From Betaproteobacteria bacterium (GTDB taxonomy: Bacteria; Pseudomonadota; Gammaproteobacteria; Burkholderiales; SG8-39): 64,000 bases of DNA. A program made the translations under genes and the position numbers. Below the pieces are notes generated by a model, which saw nothing but the letters and a program-made list of their open reading frames with translations, was not told the DNA's origin and did no database searches. The stretch lies in the NCBI GenBank assembly GCA_005881575.1, contig VBCA01000001.1, positions 85,611 through 149,610 on the forward strand, in the 5' to 3' direction. Below, piece by piece: positions 48,813 to 64,000 of the stretch. Position 1 is the stretch's first letter. Each line of letters starts with the position of its first letter.

Positions 48813-49742
48813 TCATGGAAGTTTCTCGGCGACGCGCAGCACGGCGCTCCTCGAGCGGGGATTTGCCCTGATTTCCTCGGCGCTGGGCTTTGCCGGCCGG
48901 CCGACGATGCGCAGCTTCGGAGGCGGCAGCTCCCGAGCCCTCACGGGCAGACGCTCGGGCAAGGTGGGCCGCGCGGCGCCGCGCATGAAGTTCTTTACGA
49001 TGCGGTCCTCGAGTGAATGGAAGCTGATCACGGCGAGGCGACCACGGGAATCGAGGACGGCGAGCGCTTGCGGCAGCGCTAGCGACAATTCCTCAAGCTC
49101 CTGATTGACGTGAATCCGTAGAGCCTGAAACGTCCGCGTCGCCGGATCCTGCCCCGGTTCACGCGTCCGGGCGGACGCAGCCACGAGAGCGGCAAGTTCC
49201 CCGGTCCGCCGGACAGGCCCTCTTCGCCGAGTAGCAACAATCGCCTTTGCAATCTGTTTAGCAAACCGTTCTTCGCCATAGCCGCTGAGGACCTCCCTGA
49301 TCTCGGACTCGTCCGCCCGTTCGAGCCACTCGAACGCACTTTGACCCCGCGTCGGGTCCATGCGCATATCGAGCGGCCCGTCAGACCGGAAGCTGAAGCC
49401 GCGCTGCGGGTCGTCGAGCTGAGGCGAGGACACGCCCAGATCGAACAGCACCCCATCGACGCCGCCCGCGCGCAGCGCGGCTAGCCTCGCCTGCAATTCG
49501 CTGAAACGCGCATGCACCGGCGTAAAACGCGGGTCGCGTATCCTGCGCGCAGATGCGATCGCCTCCGGATCCCGGTCCATGCCGATCAACCGGCCTCGGG
49601 GTCCCAGCCGCTCCAGAATCAACCGGCTGTGACCGCCTCTGCCGAATGTCGCGTCCACGAAAGTGCCGTCGTTCCGTGATTCGATCGCGAGGGCATCGAC
49701 TGCCGGGCGGAGGAGCACGGGAAGGTGCGCATCGGCGCTCAC
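48813..49742 (-). CDS. rsmH: 16S rRNA (cytosine1402-N4)-methyltransferase
   Basis: 309 aa. [16 protein letters not shown] and SFHSLEDR. Confidence 0.95.
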
Positions 49743-50182
49743 AATGAGAAGTTTTCTGTGCCCGGTGGCGGGTCAGTGCCCACTTGCGCGAGACCCCGCG
49801 CAAGACGCTCGTCCCAAGCTGCAATGTCCCAGATCTCGAAATGGCTCCCCTGCCCCACCAGCATCACGTCTTTTTTCAATCCAGCAAACTTGCGTAACGC
49901 GGGCGACACGAGGATGCGCCCTTGGGCGTCGAGCTCCAGCTCTTCGGCGAAGCCCACCAGCAGCCGCTGCCACCAGCGCGCTTGCTCGTTGAAGCTGGAG
50001 AGCGCCTGGACTTTGGCGCCGATCGGTTCCCAGGCGACGCGTGGATAAAGAAGAAGACAGCTATCGGGGTGAGCGGTGAGAACCACCGCGCGCTCTCCCG
50101 ATAGCAAGGCGTCCCGGTACCGGGTAGGCACAGCAAGCCTTCCCTTGGCGTCGAGACTCAGCTCTGTCGCCCCTTGAAGCAA
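49739..50182 (-). CDS. mraZ: Transcriptional regulator MraZ
   Basis: 147 aa with a TTG start. [10 protein letters not shown] and LDAQGRILV are the two SpoVT/AbrB-type repeats. Confidence 0.93.
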
Positions 50183-50212
50183 CGGTCCCCCTTCGAGTGG
50201 CGAAATGGAGCG

Positions 50213-50246
50213 CCACAGTTCCCCACTAAAATCTACTTCCTACCAC
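50213..50246 (-). promoter_or_regulatory. Candidate MraZ operator: phased GTGG repeats
   Basis: On the mraZ strand, GTGG occurs at 50246..50243, 50226..50223 and 50216..50213. Spacings are 20 and 10 bp, 31-64 nt upstream of the TTG start. Confidence 0.35.
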
Positions 50247-50470
50247 TCTAGAGGAAACAGGGGAGGCGGTCAAGCCTGAAATTGATGAAATTTTTAGCTA
50301 CAACAGGGACTTAAGATGGCTTTTCTAGAAACTGTGTGACATAAAATAAAAAGATACAAATTAATACGTTACCGTGTAAAGTGAATGTAATACATTAGGA
50401 AATCAAAGGGTTCCGATGAAAAGGCTGGAAGCCGCCTGTAGAGGGCGGATCCACCTTCGGCCTGCGATTT

Positions 50471-51013
50471 CTAGTGCAGGTGCTTTTTTCCGGAAACCCC
50501 GCCGGAACGGACCTGAGTCCGGTCCTGCGGCGCGTCGGAGGCGCGGCGGGCGAACATCTGATTGACCAGGGCGGTCGCCTCGCCGATCTCGGCGTCGCCG
50601 AAATGACGTGCGAGCAGGGCCGAAAGGTCGTCTATCATGCGTCGCCGCTGCATGTCGCGGATCGACTCGGGCGTCGGCCCGACGAACACCCAGCTGTGCT
50701 CATCCTGGCCGTCTTCCTGGTAGTAGCTCACCTCGACCGCCGCCGCCTCCTCGGAGTAGGGCGACAGCGATTCGAATGCGCCCTCGAGCGAATGCTGGAA
50801 ATTGCGCCCGACGTACCCCGTCCAGCAGATGTCGAGCGAGCGGCGGCGCCGGTCGAATACGATGCCGGGCTCGTCCTGGTGGGCGCTGCGCGCATCGGCG
50901 AGGCCGTCCACGTCGACGTAATCGAACCAGTGTCTGAGCGCAAGCTCGATGTCAGTCTGGCTGACGCCGCTCTTCAACAATACCGTGCCGTGAACATGAA
51001 CTTCAGTATGCAT
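50471..51013 (-). CDS. Hypothetical protein (180 aa, acidic, no motif I recognise)
   Basis: ATG-initiated ORF with genome-typical composition. Divergent from the NYN-LOTUS gene and co-directional with mraZ. Confidence 0.6.
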   Translation of the reverse strand: MHTEVHVHGTVLLKSGVSQTDIELALRHWFDYVDVDGLADARSAHQDEPGIVFDRRRRSLDICWTGYVGRNFQHSLEGAFESLSPYSEEAAAVEVSYYQEDGQDEHSWVFVGPTPESIRDMQRRRMIDDLSALLARHFGDAEIGEATALVNQMFARRASDAPQDRTQVRSGGVSGKKHLH

Positions 51014-51131
51014 TTGCTTGCCCCCGAAACGCCGATGCTAGTCCGAGAAAGCCGGGACTTCAACCTTTTCCGATCATGGCCTGGACCGGGGGATGGGATA
51101 ATACCGCCTCCGCCATGTCCAAGGACCCGAA

Positions 51132-51944
51132 ATGAGCGCATCGAGCGACACCGTAAACATGGCGCTTTTCTGCGACTTCGAGAACGTCGCGCTCGGCGTG
51201 CGCGACGCAAAGTACGCCAAGTTCGACATCAACAAGGTCCTCGAGCGCCTGCTGCTGAAAGGGAGCATCGTGCTGAAGAAGGCTTATTGCGACTGGGAAC
51301 GGTACAAGGAGTTCAAATCCGACATGCATGAAGCGTCGTTCGAGCTCATCGAGATCCCGCACGTACGCATGTCGGGAAAGAACTCAGCCGATATCCGCAT
51401 GGTCGTGGATGCGCTGGATCTTTGCTACACCAAGTCGCACGTCGACACTTTCGTCATCATCAGCGGCGATTCCGATTTCTCGCCGCTCGTCTCGAAGCTG
51501 CGCGAAAACGACAAGACCGTGATCGGGGTGGGCGTGAAGAACTCCAGCTCCGATCTGTTGGTGGCGAACTGCGACGAATTCATCTTCTACGACGACCTGG
51601 TGCGCGAAAAACCGGGACGCCAGCCACCGAGGAAAAAACCGCAGGCGAAGCCGGCCGCGAGTGGGGAAGCGGTGCCAAAGGACAACGAGGACAAGACCGA
51701 CAAGGCGCTGGATCTGGTGATGCAGACCGTCGAGGCGCTGATTGCAGAGCGGGGCGCCGAAGAGAAGATCTGGGGCTCGATGGTGAAGCAGGCGCTCAAG
51801 CGCCGCAACCCAGGCTTCAACGAGTCCTACTACGGCTTTTCGTCGTTCTCGAAGCTGCTCGACGAAGCCGAGTCGCGCAAGATGCTGCAGCTCGAGCGCG
51901 ATGAAAAATCAGGCGGCTACATCGTCAAGAGCGTCGCGCACTAG
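51132..51944 (+). CDS. NYN (LabA-like, PIN-fold) nuclease domain fused to an OST-HTH/LOTUS domain
   Basis: 270 aa. LFCDFENV and IISGDSDFSPLV are NYN acidic motifs. A basic Pro/Lys linker follows. C-terminal ...IWGSMVKQALKRRNPGFNESYYGFSSFSKLL is the LOTUS pattern. Confidence 0.85.
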   Translation: MSASSDTVNMALFCDFENVALGVRDAKYAKFDINKVLERLLLKGSIVLKKAYCDWERYKEFKSDMHEASFELIEIPHVRMSGKNSADIRMVVDALDLCYTKSHVDTFVIISGDSDFSPLVSKLRENDKTVIGVGVKNSSSDLLVANCDEFIFYDDLVREKPGRQPPRKKPQAKPAASGEAVPKDNEDKTDKALDLVMQTVEALIAERGAEEKIWGSMVKQALKRRNPGFNESYYGFSSFSKLLDEAESRKMLQLERDEKSGGYIVKSVAH

Positions 51945-51949
51945 GAAGT

Positions 51950-53155
51950 TCAAACCCGTTCGATGACCAGGGCGATCCCCTGGCCTACGCCGATGCACAT
52001 GGTGCACAGCGCATAACGGGTTTTTGTCGCGTGCAATTGGTACATTGCCGTGGTCACGAGGCGCGCGCCGGATGCGCCCAGCGGATGGCCGATCGCGATC
52101 GCACCGCCATTGGGATTCACATGCGCGGCGTCGTCGGGAAGCCCGAGGTCGCGAGTCACCGCGAGCGCTTGTGCAGCAAACGCTTCGTTGAGCTCGATCA
52201 CTTCCATCTGCGATAGTTTCAGCCCCGTTTTCCCCAGGACCTTCCTGGTCGCGGGCGCGGGGCCGACACCCATGATGCGCGGCGCGACGCCCGCAGTGGC
52301 CATGCCCAAGACGCGCGCCTTGAGGTTGAGCTTGTGCTTTTTCGCCGCAGCCTCCGAAGCGAGAATGATCGCGCAGGCGCCGTCGTTTACACCCGAGGCA
52401 TTGCCCGCGGTAACCGTGCCTTCGGGCTTCACCACGCCCTTCAACTTCGCCAGCGCTTCGATCGTCGCGTCCGGGCGCGGATGCTCGTCGCGGTCCACTA
52501 CCGTCGCCGCCCCCTTCTTCCCCGGAACGGAGACAGGGATGATCTCGCTGCGATAGAAGCCTTTCGCCTGTGCATTCGCCCAACGCTGCTGGCTTCGGAG
52601 CGCAAAGGCGTCCTGGTCGGCGCGCCCCACCTTGAATTCTTCAGCGACGTTCTCGGCGGTCTCCGGCATCGAGTCGATGCCGTACTTCGCCTTCATCAGC
52701 GGGTTGACGAAACGCCAGCCGATGGTCGTGTCCTCGATTTTCGCCGAGCGTGAGAACGCGCTGTCCGCCTTGGGCATGACGAAGGGGGCACGCGACATGC
52801 TCTCGACGCCTCCTGCGATCATCAATTGAGTCTCCCCGCAACGCATCGCCCGCGCGGCGGTGCCCACCGCATCCAGGCTCGACCCGCACAGACGGTTGAC
52901 TGTCGCGCCCGGCACGGTCTGCGGGAGTCCGGCGAGAAGCAGCGCCATGCGCGCGACGTTGCGGTTGTCTTCCCCCGCCTGGTTGACGCAGCCATAGATC
53001 ACGTCGTCGAGGGCAGCCCAGTCCACCGAGGGATTGCGCTCAACCAGCGCCTTGATCGGAAGGGTCGCGAGATCGTCCGTCCGGATCGAAGCGAGCGCGC
53101 CACCGTAGCGCCCGAAGGGCGTGCGAACGGCATCGCAGATGAATACCTCGGTCAT
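51950..53155 (-). CDS. Acetyl-CoA C-acyltransferase / 3-oxoadipyl-CoA thiolase-like
   Basis: 401 aa. CDAVRTPFGRYGG, NRLCGSSLDA (active Cys), NGGAIAIGHPLGASG and CIGVGQG. Confidence 0.88.
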   Translation of the reverse strand: MTEVFICDAVRTPFGRYGGALASIRTDDLATLPIKALVERNPSVDWAALDDVIYGCVNQAGEDNRNVARMALLLAGLPQTVPGATVNRLCGSSLDAVGTAARAMRCGETQLMIAGGVESMSRAPFVMPKADSAFSRSAKIEDTTIGWRFVNPLMKAKYGIDSMPETAENVAEEFKVGRADQDAFALRSQQRWANAQAKGFYRSEIIPVSVPGKKGAATVVDRDEHPRPDATIEALAKLKGVVKPEGTVTAGNASGVNDGACAIILASEAAAKKHKLNLKARVLGMATAGVAPRIMGVGPAPATRKVLGKTGLKLSQMEVIELNEAFAAQALAVTRDLGLPDDAAHVNPNGGAIAIGHPLGASGARLVTTAMYQLHATKTRYALCTMCIGVGQGIALVIERV

Positions 53156-53167
53156 GTCTCGGAATCT

Positions 53168-53866
53168 TCAAACGAGGCCGGTCACGGGAATCGCCGCGCC
53201 GTGGATTGCGCGCGCGGCGTCCGAAGCCAAGAACAAGATCACCTCGGCGAGCGCCTCCGGCGCCACCCAGCGCCGCGGATCGGCGCCGGGCATGTCGGCG
53301 CGGTTCTGCGGCGTGTCGATGATGCTGGGCAGTACGCAGTTGACGTTGATGCCTTTGTCGCGCAGCTCGGCCGACATGCTCTCGGTAAGCCGGATTACCG
53401 CGCTTTTCGCCGCGCTGTACGCGCCCATATTCGCTTTGCCGCTAAGACCCGCGACGGCTCCGATATTGATGATCTTTCCGCGCCCCGCGGCGAGCATCTT
53501 CGGCACGACCGCGCGTGCGGTGTTGATCACCGATTTGGCGTTGAGATCGAGCATCAGCTCCCAGACGTTTTCAGGAGTCTCGTGCACCGGCTTCCCCATG
53601 CGGAAACCGCCTGCGATGTTGCACAGAACGTCGATCCGTTGAAACCGAACGGCCGCCAGCGCCTGCGCCACCGACGCCGCGTCGAGCAAATTGGCGGGCA
53701 CCAGGAACCTGCGTTCATCGTCGCGCTCAAAGCTGGACCGCAACACTTTATCGTCGAGATCGACGAGGACCAGGGAAGCGCCCGCCAACGCGAAGGCCGC
53801 GGCAACTGCGCGGCCTAGATTGCCCGCAGCGCCCGTGATCAGACACGTCTTGCCTTCGAATGTCAC
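53168..53866 (-). CDS. SDR-family oxidoreductase
   Basis: 232 aa from GTG 53866. TGAAGNLG and YSAAK. Confidence 0.8.
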   Translation of the reverse strand: MTFEGKTCLITGAAGNLGRAVAAAFALAGASLVLVDLDDKVLRSSFERDDERRFLVPANLLDAASVAQALAAVRFQRIDVLCNIAGGFRMGKPVHETPENVWELMLDLNAKSVINTARAVVPKMLAAGRGKIINIGAVAGLSGKANMGAYSAAKSAVIRLTESMSAELRDKGINVNCVLPSIIDTPQNRADMPGADPRRWVAPEALAEVILFLASDAARAIHGAAIPVTGLV

Positions 53867-53894
53867 GGCGTAAGCGGCGGGCCGGCCCGCCGGG

Positions 53895-54551
53895 CTAGGC
53901 GACCTTCTTCGAGCTTGCCGGGGCAGACTTCGCCCAGTACTCGGTCGAAGCTTTCGCCTCGGCAAGCGCCTTGGCGTCCTCGAACCCCGGCGCCATCGAC
54001 GCCGACGTCCCGGCGAGCACCTGGTGGTGGTCGATGCCGAGCAACCTCAACCAGCTCTGCTGGCCCATGGTGAGCGCGATGAAGCAGCCCAGCTCGACCA
54101 GCTCGGGCTCGCTGAAATGCCTGTGGAGCCGGTCCCAGAACGCATCATCGGTGTTCAGGTGCCAGGTGATCGCCTCGGCATAAGCAAGCGCCGCCTTCTG
54201 GCGCTCGTCGTAATTGCTGGACTTCTCGAAATTCAGCAGATCCTTGACGTGATCCTCCATGACGGCGCCGCTAGCGGCCGCCTTGATCGAGCGCTGATTG
54301 CCGCAGTATTCACATTGAACGGAGCGCGATACGTAGAGCCTACACAGCTCCTTGATGGAGTGATCGCACACGCCGTTCCTGAAGATGTCGCGCCAGGAGT
54401 TGGCAAAGGCCCAGAAGCATTCGGGCACATGCGCGCGCACCGCGGAGCTCTCGGGCCTGGGCGTGCCTTCCCGCTGGCAGCGCTCCATTTCCCTGCGCAT
54501 CTCCGCGTCCATCTGCTCGAGCGGAACGTAGCTGATTCTCTGCTTTGCCAT
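53895..54551 (-). CDS. Carboxymuconolactone decarboxylase / AhpD-like family protein
   Basis: 218 aa. CxxC-type motif VQCEYCGNQ in an all-helical context. Confidence 0.75.
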   Translation of the reverse strand: MAKQRISYVPLEQMDAEMRREMERCQREGTPRPESSAVRAHVPECFWAFANSWRDIFRNGVCDHSIKELCRLYVSRSVQCEYCGNQRSIKAAASGAVMEDHVKDLLNFEKSSNYDERQKAALAYAEAITWHLNTDDAFWDRLHRHFSEPELVELGCFIALTMGQQSWLRLLGIDHHQVLAGTSASMAPGFEDAKALAEAKASTEYWAKSAPASSKKVA

Positions 54552-54703
54552 GGATGTCCTCGCCGGCCGCGTTCGACCGGTCTCTCAAATCCGAAGTATC
54601 GAAGTCTGCCTCTTCGGGGACGGGCTGGCAAGATCGACCCAAGCGGGATTCGACGGACCTCCGCCCATTCGTGCTTACTGAGCTCGCGCAAGCGGCTGAG
54701 CCA

Positions 54704-55666
54704 TCACTGCGGCTGGATGCCGGCCGCCTTGACAACCCGCGCGTATTCCTTGACTTCGCTCCGCACGAATATCTTGAATTCCTCCGGCGACATGTCCATG
54801 GTGTCGTTGCCGAGGCCTACGAGCCGGTCCCGCACCGCCGGATCCTTCAGCGCCTTGCGCGTGTCGGCCGAGATCTTGTTCACGATCCCCGCCGGGATGC
54901 CCGCCGGGCCCCACACTGCGAACCACAGCGGCGCATCGGCGCCTTCGACACCCGCTTCGCCGGTGGTCGGTACGTCCGGCAATTGGCCGTTGCGCTTCGC
55001 CGTGCTCACAGCGAGCGGTCGAACCCTGCCGCCCTTGATGTGCGGTATCGCCGCCGAGATCGGCGCCCAGTAGCAATCCACCGACTGGCTCAACATCGCC
55101 TGGATCACTTCCGGCGTGCCCTTGAACGGGACCTGGGTGACGTTGATTTTCGCCGCGTCGACGAACTTCTCCGTGTTGAGGTGCGTGCCGCTGCCCACGC
55201 CGGCATGGCCCCAGTTGATCGCGCCCGGTTTTGCCTTCGCCGCATTCACGACGTCCATCAGGGTCTTGTAAGGTGACCCCGTATTGACGATCAAGACATT
55301 CGGCTGCACCGCGAGCGGCACGATATCGACGAAGTCCTTCTCCACATCGTAGGGCAGCTTCGCGTAGATCGACGGCGTCACCGTGTGCGCATTGGAATCG
55401 ATGAGCAGCGTATAGCCGTCCGCCGGCGCCTTGGCGACGAACGCCGTGCCGATCGAGCCGCCAGCGCCGGCGCGGTTCTCCGCGAGCACCGGCTGGCCCC
55501 ACATCTCCGCAAGCTTCTGCGCTACCACGCGCCCCACGATGTCGGTCGAGCTGCCCGGCGAGAACGAGATGATCACGTGCACGGGCTTGTTCGGATACGC
55601 CTGCGCCCACGCCTGGGACGCGGCTACCGCCAGCGCCACTGCGGCAATACCAATTATTTTTTTCAT
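54704..55666 (-). CDS. Tripartite tricarboxylate transporter substrate-binding protein (Bug/TctC family)
   Basis: 320 aa. Signal peptide, then YPNKPVHVIISFSPGSSTDIVGR. Confidence 0.9.
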   Translation of the reverse strand: MKKIIGIAAVALAVAASQAWAQAYPNKPVHVIISFSPGSSTDIVGRVVAQKLAEMWGQPVLAENRAGAGGSIGTAFVAKAPADGYTLLIDSNAHTVTPSIYAKLPYDVEKDFVDIVPLAVQPNVLIVNTGSPYKTLMDVVNAAKAKPGAINWGHAGVGSGTHLNTEKFVDAAKINVTQVPFKGTPEVIQAMLSQSVDCYWAPISAAIPHIKGGRVRPLAVSTAKRNGQLPDVPTTGEAGVEGADAPLWFAVWGPAGIPAGIVNKISADTRKALKDPAVRDRLVGLGNDTMDMSPEEFKIFVRSEVKEYARVVKAAGIQPQ

Positions 55667-55687
55667 CTGAAGCTCCTCTGCGAAAGA

Positions 55688-56620
55688 TTATTGCGACAGT
55701 CCGTCGCCGACTGCTTTGTCTTCCGGTTTCAGCTCGATCCCCGACGCCTTCGCCTGGTGCAAGAGCAAGGTCGAGAAGTCCTCCTCGGTCATGCCGGCGC
55801 CCATCATCGATTGGATCAGATCGCGGGTGATCGAGGCGAGCGGCATCGGCACTTCGAGCTTGCGGCCGGCCTCGAGTCCCAGGTCCATGTCCTTGCGCAG
55901 CAGGTACGGCGTAAACGTAATGTGGAAGTCGAGATTGACGAAGGCCGGGGCCTTATAGCGCGTGAAGGTCGAGCCCATCACGCTCTTGTTGAGGAAATCG
56001 AGGAAGGCGTGGCGCGGCACGCCCGCCTTCTGCGCGAGCACAGTGATCTCCGCCATGCACTGCGTCACCACGCCCAGCATCACGTTGTGACAGATCTTCA
56101 CGATGCGCGAAAGCTCCCCTTCGCCGACGTAGGAGGACCCCTGCCCCATCATGTCGAGGTAAGGCGCCGCCGCATCGTAGGCGCTCCTCGGGCCGGAAAC
56201 CACGAAAGTGAGCTTGCCCGCCTTGATCACCTTCGCGTTCCCCGAGACCGGCGCGGACAGCAGCTCGACGCCCTTCGCGGAGAGGATCTTGCGCAGCTCG
56301 GCGGAGCCCTCGAGCGAAATCGAAGAACACTCGACCACCATCTTCGGTCTGGCGCTTCCGGACAATAAGCCTTTCGGTCCGGCGATCACTTCCTTGACGT
56401 CGTCGTAAGTCGAGACCATGCAGAACACGATGTCGCAGCCGGCGAGCTCCGGCAAGCCGTCCGCGATCTTGGCGCCGTCCTTGGCGAGTGGCTCGGCTTT
56501 CGCGCGCGTGCGATTCCACACCGTGATGGCGCAACCGCCTTTCGCCAGGCGGCGCGCCATTTCGAAACCCATGCGCCCGGCGCCGATCCAACCGAGCTTC
56601 ACTACTTTTGCCGCAGTCAA
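55688..56620 (-). CDS. NAD(P)-dependent oxidoreductase, 3-hydroxyisobutyrate/6-phosphogluconate dehydrogenase-like
   Basis: 310 aa. Rossmann motif LGWIGAGRMGFEMARRL. Confidence 0.85.
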   Translation of the reverse strand: MTAAKVVKLGWIGAGRMGFEMARRLAKGGCAITVWNRTRAKAEPLAKDGAKIADGLPELAGCDIVFCMVSTYDDVKEVIAGPKGLLSGSARPKMVVECSSISLEGSAELRKILSAKGVELLSAPVSGNAKVIKAGKLTFVVSGPRSAYDAAAPYLDMMGQGSSYVGEGELSRIVKICHNVMLGVVTQCMAEITVLAQKAGVPRHAFLDFLNKSVMGSTFTRYKAPAFVNLDFHITFTPYLLRKDMDLGLEAGRKLEVPMPLASITRDLIQSMMGAGMTEEDFSTLLLHQAKASGIELKPEDKAVGDGLSQ

Positions 56621-56638
56621 CTCAACTCTCCTTGGGAA

Positions 56639-56878
56639 TTACTTCGGCGCGGTCTCGATCACCGCGAGCACGGTCCCCACCGGCACCGTGGTTCCCGGCT
56701 CGACGAGGATCGCTTTGAGCACACCGCTTGCAATGGCCGGGATCTCCGTCGTCACCTTGTCGGTCTCGACGTCGAAAAGAGGCTCATCCGCTCTGACTGC
56801 ATCACCGACTTTCTTGTACCAGTTGGCGACGGTGCCTTCGGTCACCGTCTCGCCCAGCTGAGGCATGATCACGTCCAT
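56639..56878 (-). CDS. Stand-alone lipoyl-attachment domain protein (79 aa)
   Basis: [48 protein letters not shown] contains the lipoyl-lysine motif ETDK. The ORF ends after the single domain. Confidence 0.8.
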
Positions 56879-56898
56879 TTCTTCCGTCTCCGTCCAGT

Positions 56899-57891
56899 TC
56901 ACGCCGCGCGGCGCGAGTCCAGGCCGCGGCGGACTTCCGCTACGATGCGCGCGACCGAAGGCACGACCGCGTCCTCGAGCTGGTCGGCGGCGGGCAGCGG
57001 CACGTGCGGCGTGGTGATCCGCACGATCGGTCCCTTGAGAGCGCCGAAAATTTCTTCCTGGATGACCGAGGCGATCTCCGCGCCCCAGCCGCACAGCCGC
57101 GGGTTTTCCTCGACCGTGAACACGCGCCCGGTGCGCGCCGATTCGGCGAGCAGTGTCTTCGCGTCGAGCGGCACGAGCGAGCGCAGGTCCATCACCGTTG
57201 CGGAAATTCCGTGCTCCGCGGCAAGAGTCTCGGCGGCCTTGAGCGCGCGCGGAACCATGGCGGCGAGCGCGATCACGGTGATGTCCTTGCCTTCGCGCAG
57301 CACCTTGGCCTTTCCGAGCGGCTCGACGTGCTCGCCCTCGGGCACCTCGGCTTTGTTGGCGAGCAGGCTCTTGTGCTCGAAGAACACGACCGGATCGGGA
57401 TCGCGAATTGCGGCGGCGAGCAGCCCCTTGGCGTCGGCCGGCGTGGAAGGCGCCACGACTTTCAGGCCCGGTATCGCCATCGCCCAGTTCTCCACGCTCT
57501 GCGAGTGCTGCGCACCGAAGCGCGAGCCCGCGCCGTTCGCGGTGCGGATGACGAGTGGAATGGAAATCTGCCCATCGCTCATGTAGCGCGTTTTGGCGAT
57601 CTCGTTGGCGACATAGTCCCAGCAGCAGGCGAGGAAATCCGAGAACATGATCTCTGCCACCGGCCGCAATCCCGTCATCGCCGCGCCCATCGCCGCGCCG
57701 AGGATGGCGAGCTCCGAGATCGGAGTGTCTTTCACGCGCCTCGGCCCGAACTCCTCGAAGAGGCCCACCGTGGTCTTGAACACGCCGCCTGCGGCGGCGG
57801 TGTCTTCGCCGAAGAGCACGACGCGTTCGTCGCGCCTCATTTCCTGCGCGATCGCGGCAGCGACCGCGTCCCGGTAGCTCAGTTGCGCCAT
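56899..57891 (-). CDS. TPP-dependent 2-oxoacid/acetoin dehydrogenase E1 component, beta subunit
   Basis: 330 aa from [10 protein letters not shown] (ATG 57891 verified). Transketolase-like pyrimidine-binding and C-terminal domains. Confidence 0.9.
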
Positions 57892-58901
57892 GCGTTGCCT
57901 CCGTCCGCCCATACGTCGCTCATCGCCGACTCGAGCGAGGGTGTGGGCGAAGCCTTTGCGGCTTCGGTCGCCTGATCGAGTTTCGTCATTGCTTCGGATT
58001 CGATCTTCGCGAGCGTGCCTTCCGCGACGCCGCTCGCGAGCAAGCGGTTGCGGTAAAGCGTCACCGGATCGCGCTTGAGCCACTCCTCGAGCTCCTCTTT
58101 CGGACGGTATTTCGCCGGGTCGGCGCGCGAGTGCCCGCTGTGCCGATAGGTGAGGCATTCGATGAGGGAGGGGCCGCCGCCCGAGCGCGCCTTGGCGAAG
58201 GCGTCGCGCGCAGCGCTGTATACGACGTCGGCGTCGTTGCCGTCGATGACCTGGCGCTCCAGGCCGTAGCTTGCAGCGCGGTCGGCGGCCGGGTGTTTCA
58301 CCGCGGTGACTGCGGAGATCGGCGTGTACTCCATGTACATGTTGTTCTCGCAGCAGAAGACGACAGGCAGCTTCCATACCGCCGCGAGATTCAGCGCCTC
58401 GTGAAAGGCGCCGATGTTGGTCGCGCCATCGCCGAAGAAGGCACAGGCGACCTGCTTCGTTCCGCGGTACTGCGCCGACCACGCGGCGCCGGCGGCGATC
58501 GGCAGATGCGCGCCGACGATGGCATAGGAACCCATCACCCCATGCGCGACGCTCGTGAGGTGCATCGAGCCGCCTTTGCCCTTCATCAGGCCGCACTGCC
58601 GTCCCATCAGCTCGCCCAGCACGGAGAGCATCGGCGCACCCCGCGCGAGCGTGTGGTGATGGCCGCGATAGGTGCAGAAGGTGTAGTCGTCCGGGTTCAT
58701 CGCCGCGGCGAAGCCGGCCGCGACCGCCTCCTGGCCGAGCGCGAGATGGCTCGTCCCCTTCACCAAGTTCTGCAGGAACAGGTCGTAGGCGCGCTTCTCG
58801 CAGTAGCGGATCTCGACCTGCAGCTTGAACAAGCGCAGCCGCGTCGCTTCGGGGATCTCCTGATTTCTCTGCGCCGAATGCGCCTTTTGCGTGACGCTCA
58901 T
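57879..58901 (-). CDS. TPP-dependent dehydrogenase E1 component, alpha subunit
   Basis: 340 aa. TPP motif [31 protein letters not shown]. Overlaps the E1 beta start by 13 nt. Confidence 0.9.
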
Positions 58902-58916
58902 GTTGGACTCGCTCCT

Positions 58917-60230
58917 TCAGCTTCGGTATGGATTCGCGATCGGCAACTCTTCGGCGGGATAAAGCGAGATGATCTTCGCGCCCTCGGGCGTGAGGATCAC
59001 TTCTTCCTCGATGCGCGCGGCCGAGATGCCGTCGCTCGCGGGGCAGTAGGTCTCCACGGCGAACACCATGCCCGCCTTCAGCTCGATCGGCTCCTTGAAC
59101 GAAGTGAGCCGCGAGACGAGCGGCCGCTCATGCAAGCCGAGCCCCAGCCCGTGGCAGAAGTTCAGACCAAAGGCCTCCATCTCGCTCGAAAAGCCGATCT
59201 CCTTCGCCTCCGGGAAGGCCCGCGCGATCTTGTCGCTGGCCACCCCGGGCTTCAAGAGGTCGATCGCCTTGTCCATCCACTCGCGCGCCTTCCGGTACGC
59301 GGTGCGCTGCGGGGCGGTCGCGCGCCCGACGTTGAAGGTGCGGTAGTAGCAGGTGCGGTAGCCCATGAACGACTGGATGATGTCGAAGAAGGCCTGGTCG
59401 CCGGGCCGGATCAGGCGGTCGGTGAAGTTGTGCGGGTGCGGCGAGCAGCGCTCGCCTGAAATGGAATTGATCGCCTCGACACAGTCCGAGCCCATCTGGT
59501 AGAGCCGCGAGGTCGCGAGCGCGACGATCTCGGATTCCTTGACGCCGGGCTTCAGTACCTCGGCGATGTCCTGGTAGACCCCGTCGACCATCGCCGAGGC
59601 CATGTTGAGGAGGGTCAGCTCGTCGATGTTCTTCACTTCGCGCGCCTGGAGCATCACCTGCTGGCCGTCGCGCACCTCGATCCCGAGTTTCTGCAGCTCG
59701 AACAGCATCGGCGGCTCGACCACGTCGAGACCCAGCGGCATGCCGCCCACGCCTTCGGCGTCGAGGATCGCCTTGATCTCCGTTGCCGCCTCGCGAAACA
59801 GCGTGATGTCGCTTCCTACCGCCCCGCGCAATCCGAGGAGCCCCGCCTTGCAGTGATCGACCTGCAGCCAGGGCGCGTAGAGGCGGTGGTGCTTCGCGGC
59901 GCTGCCGAAATCCCAGATGTAGGGGTCGCCGTTGCCGGTGAGGAGCGAGTAGCGCGTCAGCTTGTCGCGCGCCCATTCGCCGATGACGGTGCTGGTGGTG
60001 TAGCGGATGTTGTGCTGGTCGAACGAAAGCAACGCACCCAGGCCCGAGGCCGCGAGCGCGGCGCGCACGCGCGCGAGGCGGTAGTCGTGCAGCCGCCTGA
60101 AGTTGATGCGCTCCTCGAAATCGACCTGGGTGTGACCCGGCGCGTGCAGCGGCCGCTTCCAGTTGTGGTGCGGGTCGATGTCGTCGGGCTGGATGATTTT
60201 CGGCTCGGCGGTTTTTTTCGGTTTGGCCAT
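58917..60230 (-). CDS. M24-family (creatinase/prolidase-fold) enzyme with an atypical metal site
   Basis: 437 aa. GDQAFFDIIQSFMGYRTCYYRTF, CHGLGLGLHE, FAVETY and RIEEEV. See the finding for the Asp->Cys substitution. Confidence 0.85.
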   Translation of the reverse strand: MAKPKKTAEPKIIQPDDIDPHHNWKRPLHAPGHTQVDFEERINFRRLHDYRLARVRAALAASGLGALLSFDQHNIRYTTSTVIGEWARDKLTRYSLLTGNGDPYIWDFGSAAKHHRLYAPWLQVDHCKAGLLGLRGAVGSDITLFREAATEIKAILDAEGVGGMPLGLDVVEPPMLFELQKLGIEVRDGQQVMLQAREVKNIDELTLLNMASAMVDGVYQDIAEVLKPGVKESEIVALATSRLYQMGSDCVEAINSISGERCSPHPHNFTDRLIRPGDQAFFDIIQSFMGYRTCYYRTFNVGRATAPQRTAYRKAREWMDKAIDLLKPGVASDKIARAFPEAKEIGFSSEMEAFGLNFCHGLGLGLHERPLVSRLTSFKEPIELKAGMVFAVETYCPASDGISAARIEEEVILTPEGAKIISLYPAEELPIANPYRS

Positions 60231-60298
60231 CGACTTTTCCCCAGGACGACTTTTTGGGAGAACGCGAAGTATGCCACGCGGCCGCGAAGGGGTCCGCT

Positions 60299-61258
60299 CT
60301 AATTAGCGGTTATGCCCGCCGCCTTGATCAGCTGGGCGTTCGACTCGAACTCCTTCTTGATCATCGCCTCGAAGTCGGGCAGCGACATGCTCAAGGGATC
60401 CACACCCAGCTTGAGAAATTTTTCGCGCACCTCGGGCGAGCTCACCGCGGCGTTGAACTCCTTGTTGAGGCGCAGAACGATGTCGCGCGGGGTCCTGGAG
60501 GCGACCAGGGCGCCGATCCAGAAGTTGTAGTCGGAGTTCGGATAGCCGGCTTCGACGGTGGTGGGGACGTCCGGAAAAAGCGCGCTCCTCTTGGGCGAGC
60601 CCACCGCGAGCGCGCGCAGCTTGCCCTCCTTGACCTGAGGCCCCACCTGGAACGGCAGCGCAAAATAGAAATCGGCGCGACCGGTAAGCACTTCGGTGAG
60701 CGCATCGGGCGCGCCCTTCATCGGCACGTGCAGCACTTCGATTCCCGCCGCGATGCGAAAACGCTCCAGGTTCATGTGCGTGGAGCTGCCGATGCCGGCA
60801 GTCGTGGCGACGACCGCCCCGGCCTTCGCCTTGGCCGCGGCGACGAGGTCCGCCACGGTCTTGTAGCTCTTGGCGGTCGAGACGACCAGCACCGTGGGAA
60901 CCGTTCCGAGAGTCGCGACCGGCGTGAGTTCCTTCGGATCGAGCGGTCCCGGGGAGAGGAGCGGCGCCACCGTGAACGCGGAGGTGTAAATGCTGATCAT
61001 GTGCCCGTCCGGATCGGCCTTGGCGACATAGGCAGCGCCGATCAGCCCGCCCACGCCGAGCTTGTTCTCGACGATCACCGCCTGACCGAGGCTCGCCTGC
61101 AATTTCTCGGCGACGATGCGCGCCGTGGTATCCGACGCGCTGCCCGGGGTGACGCCCGAAACGAGATGAATGGTCCTGCTGGGAAAAGTCTGGGCGGCGG
61201 CGACGCCCGACGCGAGCGACGCCGCGGCAATCGCAATCCAGCAAACGCGTTTCAACAT
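60299..61258 (-). CDS. Bug/TctC-family periplasmic substrate-binding protein
   Basis: 319 aa from MLKRVCWIAIAAASLASGVAAAQ. FPSRTIHLVSGVTPGSASD. Confidence 0.9.
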   Translation of the reverse strand: MLKRVCWIAIAAASLASGVAAAQTFPSRTIHLVSGVTPGSASDTTARIVAEKLQASLGQAVIVENKLGVGGLIGAAYVAKADPDGHMISIYTSAFTVAPLLSPGPLDPKELTPVATLGTVPTVLVVSTAKSYKTVADLVAAAKAKAGAVVATTAGIGSSTHMNLERFRIAAGIEVLHVPMKGAPDALTEVLTGRADFYFALPFQVGPQVKEGKLRALAVGSPKRSALFPDVPTTVEAGYPNSDYNFWIGALVASRTPRDIVLRLNKEFNAAVSSPEVREKFLKLGVDPLSMSLPDFEAMIKKEFESNAQLIKAAGITAN

Positions 61259-61280
61259 GGTTTTCTCCTCTGTTCGGCTG

Positions 61281-62381
61281 TCAGATCCTGGGCAGCTCCA
61301 GCTGCCCGGCAAGCCAGTCGGCCGTCCGGCTCCGATAGCGATAAGGACGGTTGTTGGCATTGTGCCCGCCGTCCTCGACGATCAGCAACTCCACCGGCCC
61401 CGAGACACTTTCCGCCAGGCGCTCCGCGTGCGAGGCGGGCACGAGCCGGTCCTCGCGACCGGTGACGATGAAGATCGGGCAGGCGATTTTCGCCGCCGCC
61501 TCTTTCATCGACAGGGTCGCGGCGTTCTTCAGCGCGTCGGCTTCGCTTGCACAATGGCTGCGCGCGCGGAACGCCTCGCGCGTCAGCGCCGGCAGCGCGC
61601 CCCAGATTTCCTTCCACTCGAACGGCCCGGAGAGCGCGATGCAGGCCTTGATGCGTTTTTCGTAGGCGGTCGCGCGCGGCGCGTAGTAACCACCGAGGCT
61701 CACGCCCCACATGGCGATCTTCGCCGCGTCGAGATCGGCGCGCTTCTCGACCCAATCGCACACCGCGCGCGCGGCGCGCTCGTAGTCGCCGCAAATCGGG
61801 ATCTCGTACTCCGCCTCGCCCTGCCCGGGTCCGTCGATCGCCAGGATCGCGACGCCGCGCGCGAGGAAAGGCTCCGCGTAGGCGTGAAGCTCTTCCTTGG
61901 TGGAATCCAGTCCGGGCGCCATGATCAATACCGGCGAGCGTCCCGTTGCGCCCACCGGTCGCCGCAAGATTCCGTAAAGGGTTTTTCCCTCGAACGGTAT
62001 CGAAACGCGCTCGCCCGTCGGGCGCATGAGCGGAAGCGCCAATTGGTAGCATTCGACCGAGCGTAGGTGCGCGTCTCGCATCTGCTTCTGATCGTGCACG
62101 AAAACGAACTTGGCGAAGTGGTAGTACATCGCCGCCCGCACCAGGTGCTCGCCGGCCGTGAGCTTGTAGCCTTGGGCGAGCGCCTCGCGCCCGAGCGCCT
62201 CGTGGACCTTGCCGCGCTCGCACCAGGCGCGGCACCAGTCCTCCCAGCGCTCGATGCCGGCGGTGACCTCCTCGAAATCGGCGAGCAGAACGCCGTTCGA
62301 CACGAAGCGCGGCGCCCAATGCGCGATCGCCGTCGCGACGCGCGGGTCGATGGATCTTGTCTTGGCTGCGACTTCGGGCAT
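61281..62381 (-). CDS. Alpha/beta hydrolase with a helical N-terminal region of about 130 aa
   Basis: 366 aa. Nucleophile elbow GVSLGG, Asp in GREDRLVP, His in DGGHNA. Confidence 0.8.
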   Translation of the reverse strand: MPEVAAKTRSIDPRVATAIAHWAPRFVSNGVLLADFEEVTAGIERWEDWCRAWCERGKVHEALGREALAQGYKLTAGEHLVRAAMYYHFAKFVFVHDQKQMRDAHLRSVECYQLALPLMRPTGERVSIPFEGKTLYGILRRPVGATGRSPVLIMAPGLDSTKEELHAYAEPFLARGVAILAIDGPGQGEAEYEIPICGDYERAARAVCDWVEKRADLDAAKIAMWGVSLGGYYAPRATAYEKRIKACIALSGPFEWKEIWGALPALTREAFRARSHCASEADALKNAATLSMKEAAAKIACPIFIVTGREDRLVPASHAERLAESVSGPVELLIVEDGGHNANNRPYRYRSRTADWLAGQLELPRI

Positions 62382-62610
62382 GAACGATCGGCTATTCCAG
62401 CCTCTGTCAGGTCACTGACAGCATCGAAAAACGCTCTCCGCCCCTGGCATTGGTCTTGCTATCTGTATGGGCGAGGTCCCTGACCTGAGTGCTTGACCGG
62501 CAGCGGGGTGTAGCTTGGCAGGTGTCCGTCACAACTGACGCTTCCGCGACGCCGGCAAGAGCGAGGACAGGGGATGGTTCGATAACCGCAGCAGTACCAG
62601 GAGAAAAGCT

Positions 62611-62826
62611 ATGCGTGCTCTGAGGATCGTGTTTGCAAGTGCAGCCTTCTTGACCGTTTCCGCCTTCGCGGCCGACACGCAGGTGCAGCCGTCGGCGCAA
62701 CGGACGACGCCGAATATCGTCGTGGCGTCCGCGGAGAAGCATGTCAAGCAGGCGCCCCGCGTCGCTAAGACCGAAGCCCCGGTGCGCGTGTGGACCCTCG
62801 AGATGGCCTGCTGCGAGGCGCAGTAG
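62611..62826 (+). CDS. Small secreted protein with a C-terminal twin-Cys motif (hypothetical)
   Basis: 71 aa. AGGAGA ribosome-binding site 7 nt upstream of the ATG. Signal peptide MRALRIVFASAAFLTVSAFA|AD. Third-position GC is high, like the surrounding genes. Ends ...WTLEMACCEAQ. Confidence 0.5.
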   Translation: MRALRIVFASAAFLTVSAFAADTQVQPSAQRTTPNIVVASAEKHVKQAPRVAKTEAPVRVWTLEMACCEAQ

Positions 62827-62884
62827 GACGTCCTGGCGCCCTTCCGTCGAGAAGTTGATCATCGATTCGTCCGCCGCTGCGAAC

Positions 62885-63544
62885 TCAAGCGGCGGCCCGG
62901 GCGGCGGAGGGCGATAGGGGCACTCCGCTCAGCCGCTGCAGCTCCTCGCAGGCGAGTCCTGGCACCAGGCGGCTCGCCACGAGGCCGCCCGGCGTGACGT
63001 CGATGACCGCGAGATCGGTATAGATGCGCTTGACCACAGCGATGCCGGTAAGCGGATAGGTGCAGCGCTCGACGATTTTCGATTCGCCGCCCTTGGTGAG
63101 CTGCTCCATCATCACCCAGACGCTCTTCGCACCGACCGCAAGGTCCATCGCACCCCCCACTGCCGGAATTGCGTCGCCGCCGGTGTGCCAGTTGGCGAGG
63201 TCGCCGGAGACGGATACCTGAAAGGCGCCCAGCACGGCGATGTCGAGGTGCCCGCCGCGCATCATCGCGAAGGAATCGGTGTGGTGGAAGTACGCGCCGC
63301 CCGTCAGCAAGGTCACGGGCTCTTTTCCGGCATTGATCAGATCCAGGTCCTCCAGCCCCGGCGCGGGCGCCGGCCCCATTCCCAGGATGCCGTTTTCGCT
63401 GTGCAGGATGATCTCGCGGTCCTTCGGCAGATGGTTTCCGACCAGGGTCGGCATGCCGATCCCCAGATTGACGTAGGCGCCTTCGGGGATGTCGCGCGCG
63501 ATACGCGCGGCGATCTGGTCGCGCGTTAGCTTCACGTAGCTCAT
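62885..63544 (-). CDS. 3-oxoacid (3-oxoadipate/succinyl-CoA) CoA-transferase subunit B
   Basis: 219 aa. VNLGIGMPTLV and the SENG motif (LHSENGILGMG). Confidence 0.9.
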   Translation of the reverse strand: MSYVKLTRDQIAARIARDIPEGAYVNLGIGMPTLVGNHLPKDREIILHSENGILGMGPAPAPGLEDLDLINAGKEPVTLLTGGAYFHHTDSFAMMRGGHLDIAVLGAFQVSVSGDLANWHTGGDAIPAVGGAMDLAVGAKSVWVMMEQLTKGGESKIVERCTYPLTGIAVVKRIYTDLAVIDVTPGGLVASRLVPGLACEELQRLSGVPLSPSAARAAA

Positions 63545-64000
63545 GCCGCCTGCTCCCGAACCTGCGCGGCTTGTTTCTTCCGCGGCACCTTCACCACGCG
63601 CGTGACGAAAATACCCGGGGTCACGACGTGCTCGGGATCGAGCGCGCCGAGCTCGACGGTCTCATAGACCTGGGCGATGGTGCACTTCGCCGCGCTCGCC
63701 ATGGTCGGCCCGAAGTTGCGCGCGCTTTTCCTGTAGACGAGATTTCCCCAGCGGTCGCCGCGCTCCGCCTTGACGAGCGCCACGTCGCCGCGGATCGGGT
63801 ATTCGAGCACGTGGCCCTTGCCGTCGATCATCCGCGTTTCCTTGCCTTTCCCGAGATCCGTGCCGTAGCCGGTGGGCGTGTAGAAGGCGCCGATCCCGGC
63901 GCCCGCGGCGCGCATGCGCTCCGAGAGCGTCCCCTGCGGCACGAGGTCGAGCTCGATTTTCCCGGCGCGATAGAGGGCATCGAACACGTAGGAATCGGCC
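63541..64000 (-). CDS. 3-oxoacid CoA-transferase subunit A, 5'-truncated by the window edge
   Basis: ...LDLVPQGTLSERMRAAGAGIGAFYTPTGYGT... The reading frame stays open to the window end. ATGA overlap with subunit B. Confidence 0.85.
   Translation of the reverse strand, partial: ADSYVFDALYRAGKIELDLVPQGTLSERMRAAGAGIGAFYTPTGYGTDLGKGKETRMIDGKGHVLEYPIRGDVALVKAERGDRWGNLVYRKSARNFGPTMASAAKCTIAQVYETVELGALDPEHVVTPGIFVTRVVKVPRKKQAAQVREQAA

Follow-up and report, generated by a model that had tools for sequence, protein, structure and literature searches.

The M24B pita-bread enzymes (prolidase/aminopeptidase P, DddP, creatinase and DoeA) and the acetoin dehydrogenase (AcoA/AcoB/AcoC/AcoL) and heterotetrameric-E1 pyruvate dehydrogenase (PDH) complexes are the closest described relatives of genes that stand side by side in an array of eleven minus-strand genes. 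The array occupies positions 51950–62381 of a 64,000-nucleotide (nt) stretch of contig VBCA01000001.1 (Betaproteobacteria bacterium, assembly GCA_005881575.1); this whole stretch is referred to here as the window. At its centre are an M24-fold protein, an E1-alpha/E1-beta pair (E1ab), a free lipoyl carrier and a beta-hydroxyacid dehydrogenase of the HIBADH family, and the array is treated here as a candidate catabolic cluster. The M24-fold protein has, by sequence, the two-domain fold of the M24B enzymes, four of the five metal-ligand positions and the prolidase HE motif. It differs from them in that an invariant Cys replaces the bridging Asp and in scoring far under every curated model.

The E1-alpha and E1-beta proteins are of the same sequence type as those of acetoin dehydrogenase and PDH, and a lipoyl-lysine is likewise the acceptor. 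In the window, however, the lipoyl domain is a separate 79-residue protein, accompanied by neither an E2 core nor an E3. Alphaproteobacterial relatives resemble the acetoin dehydrogenase and PDH systems in also having an E2 core and LpdA, but they encode the lipoyl protein and the E2 core separately, with an aldehyde dehydrogenase (ALDH) gene in between. Furthermore, the E1ab/lipoyl system described here is always coupled to the Cys-variant M24 protein. Orphan E1ab operons of Haloferax volcanii are reported (van Ooyen and Soppa, 2007) to resemble the window in encoding a lipoyl domain that stands alone and in lacking both E2 and E3. The oadhAB2 and oadhAB3 pairs of this archaeon are acetoin dehydrogenase-like, as is the pair in the window, and have no assigned substrate, pyruvate and 2-oxoglutarate having been excluded (PMC8305020).

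The array was placed by open reading frame (ORF) listing and family scans (Table 1). A sequence-only reading of the window had described eleven co-directional genes with two wider gaps and a pcaIJ-like pair just upstream, and each of these points was confirmed. The gene coordinates give gaps of 12–28 nt, a 13-nt overlap of E1-alpha with E1-beta and two exceptions, one of 68 nt (60231–60298) and the 152-nt spacer listed in the table; pcaI is cut by the end of the window.

Table 1. Features of the array and its flanks, with the basis of each assignment and, in the last column, the number of soil contigs that carry the gene over the number long enough to reach it.
Feature	Positions	Strand	Basis or remark	Soil contigs (present/reachable)
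PcaF-type 3-oxoadipyl-CoA thiolase (pcaF)	51950–53155	-	NCBIfam TIGR02430	23/28
Classical SDR, GTG start	53168–53866	-	Pfam PF00106	28/32
AhpD-fold CxxC protein (Bmp8/YciW-like; CMD-like)	53895–54551	-	Pfam CMD weak; NCBIfam YciW-related; Bmp8 structure	33/37
Seam 2, 152-nt spacer	54552–54703	.	Length differs among related contigs; insertion site	
Bug/TctC binding protein 2 (Bug2)	54704–55666	-	Pfam PF03401, 222.9 bits	43/43
Beta-hydroxyacid dehydrogenase (HIBADH family)	55688–56620	-	PF03446 + PF14833	56/56
Free 79-residue lipoyl carrier	56639–56878	-	PF00364, 78.8 bits, ETDK motif	59/59 (58 free-standing)
E1-beta	56899–57891	-	PF02779 + PF02780; NF006667 353.5 bits against cutoff 321	63/63
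TPP-dependent E1-alpha (PDH/acetoin dehydrogenase type)	57879–58901	-	PF00676	
M24-fold protein, Cys variant	58917–60230	-	Pfam PF00557	61/61 (next to E1-alpha)
Bug/TctC periplasmic binding protein 1 (Bug1)	60299–61258	-	PF03401, 204.6 bits	46/47
Alpha/beta hydrolase, DHPON-hydrolase/AntI/Ayg1 type	61281–62381	-	Best PDB match 2jbw	36/36
71-residue ORF inside seam 1 (pcaJ/hydrolase gap)	62611–62826	+	Called as gene in L002–L007	
pcaJ/scoB-type 3-oxoacid CoA-transferase subunit B	62885–63544	-	TIGR02428	14/22
pcaI/scoA-type CoA-transferase subunit A, 5' end past window	63541–64000	-	TIGR02429	

Scanning metagenome contigs with E1-alpha yielded 80 soil contigs with 86–99% identity, which are close relatives and not independent of one another. 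A conserved-neighbourhood search with E1-alpha and M24, which the sequence-only reading had proposed, showed the same gene order to recur in these contigs and in species-representative metagenome-assembled genomes (MAGs). One such MAG contig (L010 in the L numbering used here for contigs and loci) keeps the order with one nitrilase-family (CN_hydrolase) gene inserted at seam 2. The exact M24 protein was also found on soil-metagenome scaffolds and a MAG contig with the same gene order. In such contigs the region past the window end holds the rest of pcaI (a full 233 residues in L002), a divergent ILVD/EDD-family dehydratase and a small intradiol-dioxygenase-like gene. A search for the window M24 protein returned at least 8000 candidates, and the best 120 matches listed were all at least 85% identical to it. 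For all 11 genes, the ratio of non-synonymous to synonymous substitution rates (dN/dS) against L010 is 0.03–0.22, which indicates purifying selection. The recurring order and the low dN/dS values therefore show that a clade of uncultured soil Burkholderiales maintains the array as a unit, and that its ORFs did not come together by chance.

Two junctions differ from the rest. Among related contigs, the spacing between pcaJ and the hydrolase gene (seam 1; 503 nt in the window) ranges from 6 to 2277 nt and that between the Bug2 and CMD-like genes (seam 2) from 13 to 2421 nt, whereas all other junctions are tight. Because only these two junctions vary, the region divides into three modules: pcaIJ; hydrolase–Bug1–M24–E1-alpha–E1-beta–lipoyl–HIBADH–Bug2; and CMD-like–SDR–pcaF. 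The seams shrink to 6–18 nt in L099, L126, L114, L134 and L165, and a single transcript from the hydrolase gene to pcaF is possible. The proposal that a nine-gene insert had split a pcaIJF operon does not hold as a simple insertion, as there are two seams of variable length and the whole set is kept together across the clade.

The central module extends far beyond this clade. One genome per species was scanned with the M24 protein, which gave 583 relatives, and the best 80 of these 583 loci were analysed; genes in unannotated loci were taken from a GC-frame scoring caller, which reproduced the public L002 calls, and from tblastn with the window proteins, and their products were clustered. M24 is followed by a HIBADH orthologue in about 51 of the 80 loci (counted by eye), usually with a Bug gene next. 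Only the window clade (L008, L010) and three further loci (L019, L021, L084) have E1-alpha, E1-beta and lipoyl genes separating M24 from HIBADH.

More distant M24 relatives were sought by tblastn on annotated plasmids. In Phaeobacter inhibens and Pacificitalea (M24 identity 57–60%), the order is SDR, M24, E1-alpha, E1-beta, a 428-residue protein with two lipoyl domains and no core, an ALDH resembling succinate-semialdehyde dehydrogenase (SSADH) and a 292-residue E2 core. LpdA follows in Phaeobacter, the Pacificitalea locus ends at the E2 core, and in both a HIBADH-like gene lies in an adjacent divergent transporter operon. Similarly, Roseibium marinum and Salinarimonas rosea have M24–E1-alpha–E1-beta–lipoyl protein–ALDH–E2 core with HIBADH nearby. 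Streptomyces sp. YIM 121038 (M24 identity 62%) has HIBADH (52% identical), M24, ALDH, and a fused E1ab and E2 core, and Paenarthrobacter sp. R1 (M24 identity 52%) has RidA–M24–HIBADH-like–SDR–LpdA. In Haloferax mediterranei (35% identity), M24 is plasmid-borne and its neighbours encode E1-alpha and E1-beta, an SSADH-like ALDH, a hydrolase and a regulator of the IclR type; the E1ab genes are convergent with M24 and there is no annotated lipoyl gene. The M24–HIBADH and M24–E1ab/lipoyl links thus hold across phyla and two domains of life, and they are the strongest evidence that these genes work together. The functional unit is M24 with HIBADH (and with E1ab/lipoyl), conserved far outside the clade and independent of pcaIJF. 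In almost all cases M24 has a beta-hydroxyacid dehydrogenase as its partner, and in many it also has E1ab and a lipoyl carrier encoded apart from the E2 core. M24–HIBADH also adjoins pcaIJ in other arrangements in related lineages.

Several of these loci have features of their own. A Burkholderiales MAG (L047:4053–20397) starts with pcaIJ, a maleylacetate-reductase-like iron-containing alcohol dehydrogenase (Fe-ADH), a hydroxyquinol-type intradiol dioxygenase, a second HIBADH and an amidohydrolase, and continues with M24, HIBADH, Bug, an ABC transporter and finally pcaF. In a Caldimonas MAG (L059:1322–5837), M24–HIBADH–SDR is followed by a POT/PTR2 peptide transporter, which hints at a dipeptide-like substrate in that lineage. 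In a sister lineage (L024, L036, L040, L043), HIBADH is followed by a MetE-like gene (Meth_synt_2), Peripla_BP_6, an AhpD-like orthologue, Bug and an inverted pcaJI beside mraZ, with MlaE/MlaD-like genes upstream. On the Paenarthrobacter sp. R1 plasmid (L094, 6190–13458), the RidA–M24–HIBADH–SDR–LpdA set adjoins the sulfonamide-degradation flavin reductase SulR and a copy of IS6100. A link to sulfonamide degradation was set aside, as the paper on the sad cluster makes no mention of these genes (PMC10873849), and the arrangement is treated as a plasmid mosaic.

The outer genes of the array have more recognisable relatives. The alpha/beta hydrolase has as its best PDB match 2jbw (E 3e-45, residues 25–359), the 2,6-dihydroxy-pseudo-oxynicotine (DHPON) hydrolase of the Paenarthrobacter nicotinovorans nicotine pathway, and its next-best structure matches are the retro-Claisen enzymes AntI and Ayg1. 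The alignment to DHPON hydrolase is full length and the Ser-Asp-His triad is shared, with GVSLGG in the window protein aligned with GRSLGG in 2jbw, which places it among the DHPON-type hydrolases; it is probably a C–C hydrolase. Identity to the nicotine-pathway enzyme is moderate, however, and the other genes of that pathway are all missing here.

The sequence-only reading had noted that the hydrolase and CMD-like genes are not of canonical PcaD and PcaC size, and neither is of that type. The PcaD model TIGR02427 scores 44.6 bits against a cutoff of 255.85 and covers only residues 282–356 of the hydrolase. The CMD-like protein has 218 residues with a CxxC motif, scores 24.8 bits with Pfam CMD (cutoff 23) and 56 bits with a YciW-related NCBIfam model, and matched no PcaC model. 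Its best PDB match is the thiol-dependent debrominase Bmp8 (6ohi), in which C-M-Y-C aligns with its own C-E-Y-C. In keeping with the AhpD part of the earlier label, the protein is AhpD/Bmp8-like and not PcaC, and it is predicted to act in thiol redox chemistry. It shares the fold match and the aligned CxxC with AhpD and Bmp8, but has extra N- and C-terminal sequence, a weak score (E 4e-6) and no AhpC or halogenated-pyrrole genes nearby.

The HIBADH protein has both domains of its superfamily and a GxGxxxKxxxN-type catalytic Lys motif, GEGELSRIVKICHN. It falls below all NCBIfam equivalog cutoffs, with 141.6 against 291.6 for TIGR01692 and 165.6 against 340.75 for TIGR01505. Its best PDB matches are 3pef, 2uyy, 3cky (E 5e-36) and 1vpd, and the nearest structures represent a succinic-semialdehyde/4-hydroxybutyrate enzyme, GLYR1, 2-(hydroxymethyl)glutarate dehydrogenase and tartronate semialdehyde reductase. 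The short-chain dehydrogenase/reductase (SDR) resembles FabG and butanediol dehydrogenase, with all NCBIfam matches below cutoff. PcaF passes the TIGR02430 equivalog model over its full length (735 bits against 597). PcaI (225.6 against a cutoff of 128.5 for TIGR02429) and PcaJ (295 against 243.55 for TIGR02428) belong to their respective subfamilies, although these two models do not separate beta-ketoadipate from acetoacetate specificity. The PcaF equivalog and PcaIJ subfamily matches are shared with the lower beta-ketoadipate pathway; in contrast to that pathway, PcaB, PcaC, PcaD, PcaG and PcaH are absent here, and pcaIJ and pcaF lie 9.7 kb apart.

These observations are best explained, with a probability of roughly 0.45, by a clade-conserved catabolic cluster of uncultured soil Burkholderiales that lies on the core chromosome beside the dcw cluster and would serve a pathway for a nitrogen-containing organic acid. 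The view of the sequence-only reading, that this is a catabolic array whose substrate cannot be named and which matches no described pathway, is supported. It is proposed that a carboxylate, a type of substrate implied by the presence of two Bug proteins, would be captured by those proteins; an N-containing organic acid, either N-heterocyclic or dipeptide-like, fits best. In the window clade, an upstream step would be the cutting of a C–C bond next to a carbonyl by the DHPON-hydrolase-like enzyme. The Cys-M24 protein would cleave a C–N bond (amide, enamide or amidine), giving an enamine or imine and then a semialdehyde or 2-oxo compound. HIBADH would interconvert the semialdehyde and a hydroxy acid, and ALDH would handle the semialdehyde where this enzyme is present. 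E1ab would oxidatively cleave a 2-oxo acid or an acyloin/ketol and load a small acyl group, probably acetyl, onto the free lipoyl carrier. As no E2 core or E3 is encoded in cis, the carrier would have to be served in trans, by housekeeping E2/E3 and possibly by the AhpD-like thiol protein. Finally, SDR, PcaIJ and PcaF would take a 3-hydroxy/3-oxo acid to acetyl-CoA and succinyl-CoA. The array is probably read as one or two transcripts.

Cleavage of a C–N bond to an imine or aldehyde would accord with three features of the relatives. RidA is translationally coupled to M24 in Paenarthrobacter; in L051 it separates M24 from HIBADH, and in six Casimicrobiaceae loci it is a neighbour of the pair. 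Genes for amidohydrolases, CN-hydrolases and amidases are found repeatedly near M24. No aminotransferase was seen in the bacterial clusters; Haloferax mediterranei has one at a distance of about 4.5 kb from M24. A similar logic is known from the fermentation of nicotinate by Eubacterium barkeri, in which an enamidase is followed by 2-(hydroxymethyl)glutarate dehydrogenase. In both cases a C–N ring-opening hydrolase would yield a formyl acid that is reduced by a HIBADH-family enzyme. The Eubacterium barkeri hydrolase, however, belongs to the amidohydrolase superfamily and not to M24, so that the likeness is one of analogy and not of homology.

Several observations weigh against this scheme. The pcaIJ/pcaF link is seen only within related Burkholderiales-type lineages near dcw and could be inherited synteny, and in the window pcaIJ is cut off from the array by an ORF on the other strand. 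There is no E2 core in cis to discharge the acyl-lipoyl. The proposed role of the AhpD-like protein with the lipoyl carrier is weak, because its orthologues also adjoin M24 in loci that have neither E1 nor lipoyl genes (L015, L024, L036, L040, L043, L071); an AhpD-like protein is reducible by a lipoyl protein in mycobacteria. The neighbours of M24 also vary by lineage, with TTT, TRAP, MFS, POT, CUT2 and branched-chain amino acid (BCAA)-type ABC transporters, NMT1-type binding proteins, and LacI or IclR regulators. Since these neighbours differ so widely, the M24 module may act on different compounds in different hosts.

The variable seams bear on a competing account that is rather unlikely but still serious, in which the three modules are neighbours by descent beside dcw and act on different substrates, pcaIJ and pcaF being ordinary beta-ketoadipate genes and the middle module unrelated to them. 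Both seams vary in length and take insertions, as with the CN_hydrolase gene of L010, and the 71-residue ORF lies on the opposite strand between pcaJ and the hydrolase gene. In related lineages, pcaJI is inverted or on the other side of M24–HIBADH in L024, L033, L034, L036, L040, L043 and L045, hydroxyquinol-pathway genes intervene between pcaIJ and M24 in L047, and beyond these lineages M24–HIBADH occurs without any pca gene. A mosaic of this kind is harder to reconcile with the retention of the full order in numerous contigs whose proteins are down to about 85% identical, and with the contigs whose seams close to 6–18 nt, a spacing that fits co-transcription.

The 71-residue ORF has a hydrophobic, signal peptide-like N-terminus and a GGAGAA Shine–Dalgarno sequence. 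It had no Pfam match and is seen only in contigs of the same population. As it lies on the opposite strand between pcaIJ and the array, it probably interrupts their co-transcription, with pcaIJ transcribed separately in the window. A scan for promoter and terminator consensus sequences found sites no more often than in shuffled sequence and no promoter-like or notable terminator-like site inside the array, a result that neither proves nor disproves a single transcript. No Rfam match was obtained for positions 50000–64000 at E values up to 1, seam 2 included, and seam 2 has no terminator-like site.

On the reading of the array as one catabolic cluster, the E1ab/lipoyl genes would supply an oxidative cleavage step. 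E1-alpha carries the GDG...NN thiamine pyrophosphate (TPP) motif in its translation and has human PDH E1-alpha as its best PDB match, and its score of 330.7 bits with TIGR03182 is below the PDH equivalog cutoff of 393.85. With E1-beta and a lipoyl-lysine motif, these are parts of a 2-oxo acid/acetoin dehydrogenase complex, while the E2 core and E3 that would be expected with the E1 genes are missing. By tblastn, no E2 catalytic domain, E3 (LpdA) or SSADH-type aldehyde dehydrogenase was found in the 64-kb window, and three E2 cores used as queries matched only the lipoyl part. The earlier statements that E2 core and E3 are absent in cis and that a lipoyl carrier is present are both upheld, the carrier now being refined to what appears to be an E2 without its catalytic core, strongly conserved.

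The lipoyl carrier shares 73% identity with the N-terminus of the complete E2 of L019. There, and in L021 and L084, the gene after E1-beta encodes a complete E2 with lipoyl domain and acyltransferase core, and L171, which also has a full E2, is the one exception to the free-standing lipoyl genes of the soil contigs (58 of 59). Whether E2 evolved by loss of the core or by fusion is judged from this distribution rather than a rooted tree. At 0.034 against L010, the dN/dS of the lipoyl gene is lower than that of any other gene of the array, and the gene is for this reason not a decaying remnant. A small, acetyl-sized acyl group on the carrier is suggested by the nearest relatives of two proteins, PDH for E1-alpha and AceF-type acetyltransferases for the separate E2 core in Phaeobacter. 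In L084 (11402–18169), two Amidohydro_3 genes lie between E1-beta and a full E2 with an E3-binding domain.

AcoC-type E2 proteins carry an alpha/beta-hydrolase domain. Replacement of the E2 core by the alpha/beta hydrolase of the array was considered on an AcoC-like model, but the match reaches only 26.8 bits over about 50 residues and the hydrolase is a full-length relative of DHPON hydrolase, so this idea was left as a weak one.

The acetoin dehydrogenase-like character of the E1ab genes leads to another, unlikely explanation, in which E1ab and the carrier act on a carboxylated methyl-ketol to give acetyl-lipoyl and an acid semialdehyde. M24 would make or unmask the ketol, and the semialdehyde would be reduced by HIBADH in the window clade and oxidised by ALDH in Alphaproteobacteria. 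In every alphaproteobacterial case seen, the ALDH gene lies between those for the lipoyl protein and the E2 core. HIBADH follows the lipoyl or E2 gene in Betaproteobacteria, acetoin reductase-like SDRs flank the Phaeobacter cluster, and the haloarchaeal orphan E1ab pairs are themselves acetoin dehydrogenase-like (PMC8305020). The lipoyl protein scores 81.9 bits with the acetoin dehydrogenase E2 model, though SucB-type models score higher. Most M24–HIBADH loci, however, have no E1, so HIBADH cannot depend on an E1 product, and acyloin-cleaving and pyruvate-type E1 proteins are inseparable by sequence alone.

The C–N cleavage assigned to M24 in the preferred scheme turns on an unusual metal site. 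In alignments to prolidases and DddP, the ligand positions D283, H360, E393 and E408 are kept, and four of the five expected ligands (Asp, Asp, His, Glu, Glu) are thus present. The second Asp position is C294, aligned with Asp220 of the prolidase 1pv9 and Asp307 of DddP; Asp220 of the Pyrococcus prolidase is, we assume, the residue that bridges the two metals. Cys294 is invariant in 83 of 83 relatives, including actinobacterial and roseobacterial ones, and its equivalent is kept in the haloarchaeal protein of Haloferax mediterranei. Of 17 full-length representatives, reaching down to 32% identity and taken from 532 representative clusters with E values of 1e-30 or less, 16 have the Cys.

The closest solved structures are the DddP DMSP (dimethylsulfoniopropionate) lyases (E 4e-21, full length, N-terminal domain included) and prolidases (best E 1e-19), and a creatinase matches at E 1e-6. 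Scores are far below those required by curated models: 109 against 600 for DddP (NF043017), 44.6 against 613 for DoeA (TIGR02993), 35.3 against 575 for NF038259 and 60 against 630 for PepQ. Assignment as an ectoine hydrolase of the DoeA type or a creatinase was rejected on such scores. An AlphaFold2 model built from a 25-sequence alignment had a mean predicted local distance difference test (pLDDT) score of 62, with residues 259–303 below 50, and was too poor for a fold search. Since the bridging Asp ligand is an invariant Cys, the Cys-M24 protein is not a standard metallopeptidase and forms a distinct, old branch of the M24 fold. The M24 gene (58917–60230) has the top third-position GC content (0.91) and the top coding score of the array, and may be highly expressed. 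A 691-residue database protein (P0072), 93% identical to the window M24, combines M24 and E1-alpha domains, which is explained either by a genuine fusion or by reading through the 15-nt gap.

The relatives of this protein in databases all bear generic names of the kind 'Xaa-Pro peptidase'. With the conserved HGxGLxxHE motif of prolidases and the POT transporter gene of L059, this name invites the view that M24 is a genuine Xaa-Pro (or hydroxyproline) dipeptidase and that the module feeds peptide-derived amino acids into metabolism. That is improbable, as the bridging Asp is a Cys throughout, identity to solved prolidases is low, and the partners of M24 are dehydrogenases and not enzymes of proline or hydroxyproline metabolism.

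An amide-cleaving M24 could also belong to the degradation of pantothenate, a classical route without assigned genes that runs through pantothenase, pantoate 4-dehydrogenase, dehydropantoate dehydrogenase, dimethylmalate dehydrogenase and 2-oxoisovalerate dehydrogenase. The enzyme types match step by step (M24 amide hydrolase, HIBADH, ALDH, SDR and 2-oxo acid dehydrogenase), a POT peptide transporter is present at one locus, and, according to a 2023 paper, no protein has yet been identified as pantothenase (PMC10393543). This possibility is slightly slimmer again. The E1-alpha and E2 core are of PDH/AceF type and not branched-chain type, the window clade has no ALDH, and a vitamin would hardly account for a module so abundant and so well conserved. 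Nor was an isocitrate/isopropylmalate-type dehydrogenase seen next to M24 in the proteobacterial or actinobacterial clusters; a 354-residue one lies four genes upstream in Rokubacteria, where this Iso_dh gene may be leuB, and it was given no weight.

It is very improbable that M24 cleaves DMSP or a comparable beta-substituted propionate as a lyase of the DddP type, with HIBADH then oxidising 3-hydroxypropionate: DddP is both the closest full-length structure and the best NCBIfam match, but its score is far under cutoff, Asp307, Asp377 (the proposed base) and Asp297, which we take to be functional residues of DddP, are respectively replaced by Cys, replaced by His and placed in a gap, the neighbourhood has no conserved acrylate hydratase or CoA ligase, and the hosts are mostly soil bacteria.

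The literature on the M24–HIBADH combination, new M24 functions, plasmid clusters of Phaeobacter, sulfonamide (sad) clusters and the catabolism of thiodipropionate was searched, and no description of the Cys-M24 family was found. Catabolic operons for acids yet to be named are already familiar in Burkholderiales. What is new is a Cys-variant M24 family with fixed partnerships, a lipoyl carrier detached from its core, and the breadth and abundance of the module. It is tentatively suggested that Cys-M24, HIBADH and E1ab with a detached lipoyl domain constitute an undescribed pathway of haloarchaea, actinomycetes, Alphaproteobacteria and Betaproteobacteria, the key step of which would be a new reaction at a Cys-containing metal site of the pita-bread fold; the pantothenate route is one specific but improbable candidate for it. 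The module is very abundant in soil metagenomes and spans two domains of life, yet its key enzyme is named only generically, and the invariant Cys in place of the bridging ligand points to chemistry undescribed for the M24 fold. A detached carrier under very strong purifying selection raises the question of how acyl-lipoyl is discharged. If the suggestion is correct, orphan acetoin dehydrogenase-like E1ab operons such as those of Haloferax would gain a substrate, and an answer on the substrate would improve the annotation of thousands of genes. Cultured carriers make the question testable: Phaeobacter inhibens, Roseibium marinum, Salinarimonas rosea, Reyranella sp., Streptomyces sp. and Haloferax mediterranei.

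The remainder of the window resembles core chromosome, with recA, rib genes, ffh, secA and lpxC followed by the dcw cluster, as judged from the N-terminal sequences of the gene list; of these genes, only ftsI, rsmH and mraZ (46800–50182) were checked against family libraries. With such ordinary surroundings, the array is not on an obvious mobile element. In agreement with the sequence-only reading, family scans showed no regulator and no TctA/TctB in or adjoining the array. No membrane-transporter gene was recognised in the window gene list, in which the Pfam/NCBIfam searches covered the genes from 46800 onwards.

About 35–50 nt upstream of the hydrolase start, at about 62420–62440, lies the perfect palindrome CTGTCAG-tgac-CTGACAG, which could be an operator; it is common only to the closest contigs, L095 and L097, and the upstream region is otherwise unconserved across the clade. 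Between the array and mraZ lie a plus-strand gene for a protein with NYN and OST-HTH (LOTUS) domains (51132–51944) and a minus-strand DUF6806 gene (50471–51013), a pair that is also found in L010 and related soil contigs. At 40001–44000, among apparent dcw membrane-protein genes, AT skew reaches up to +0.16 to +0.22, far above the rest of the window.

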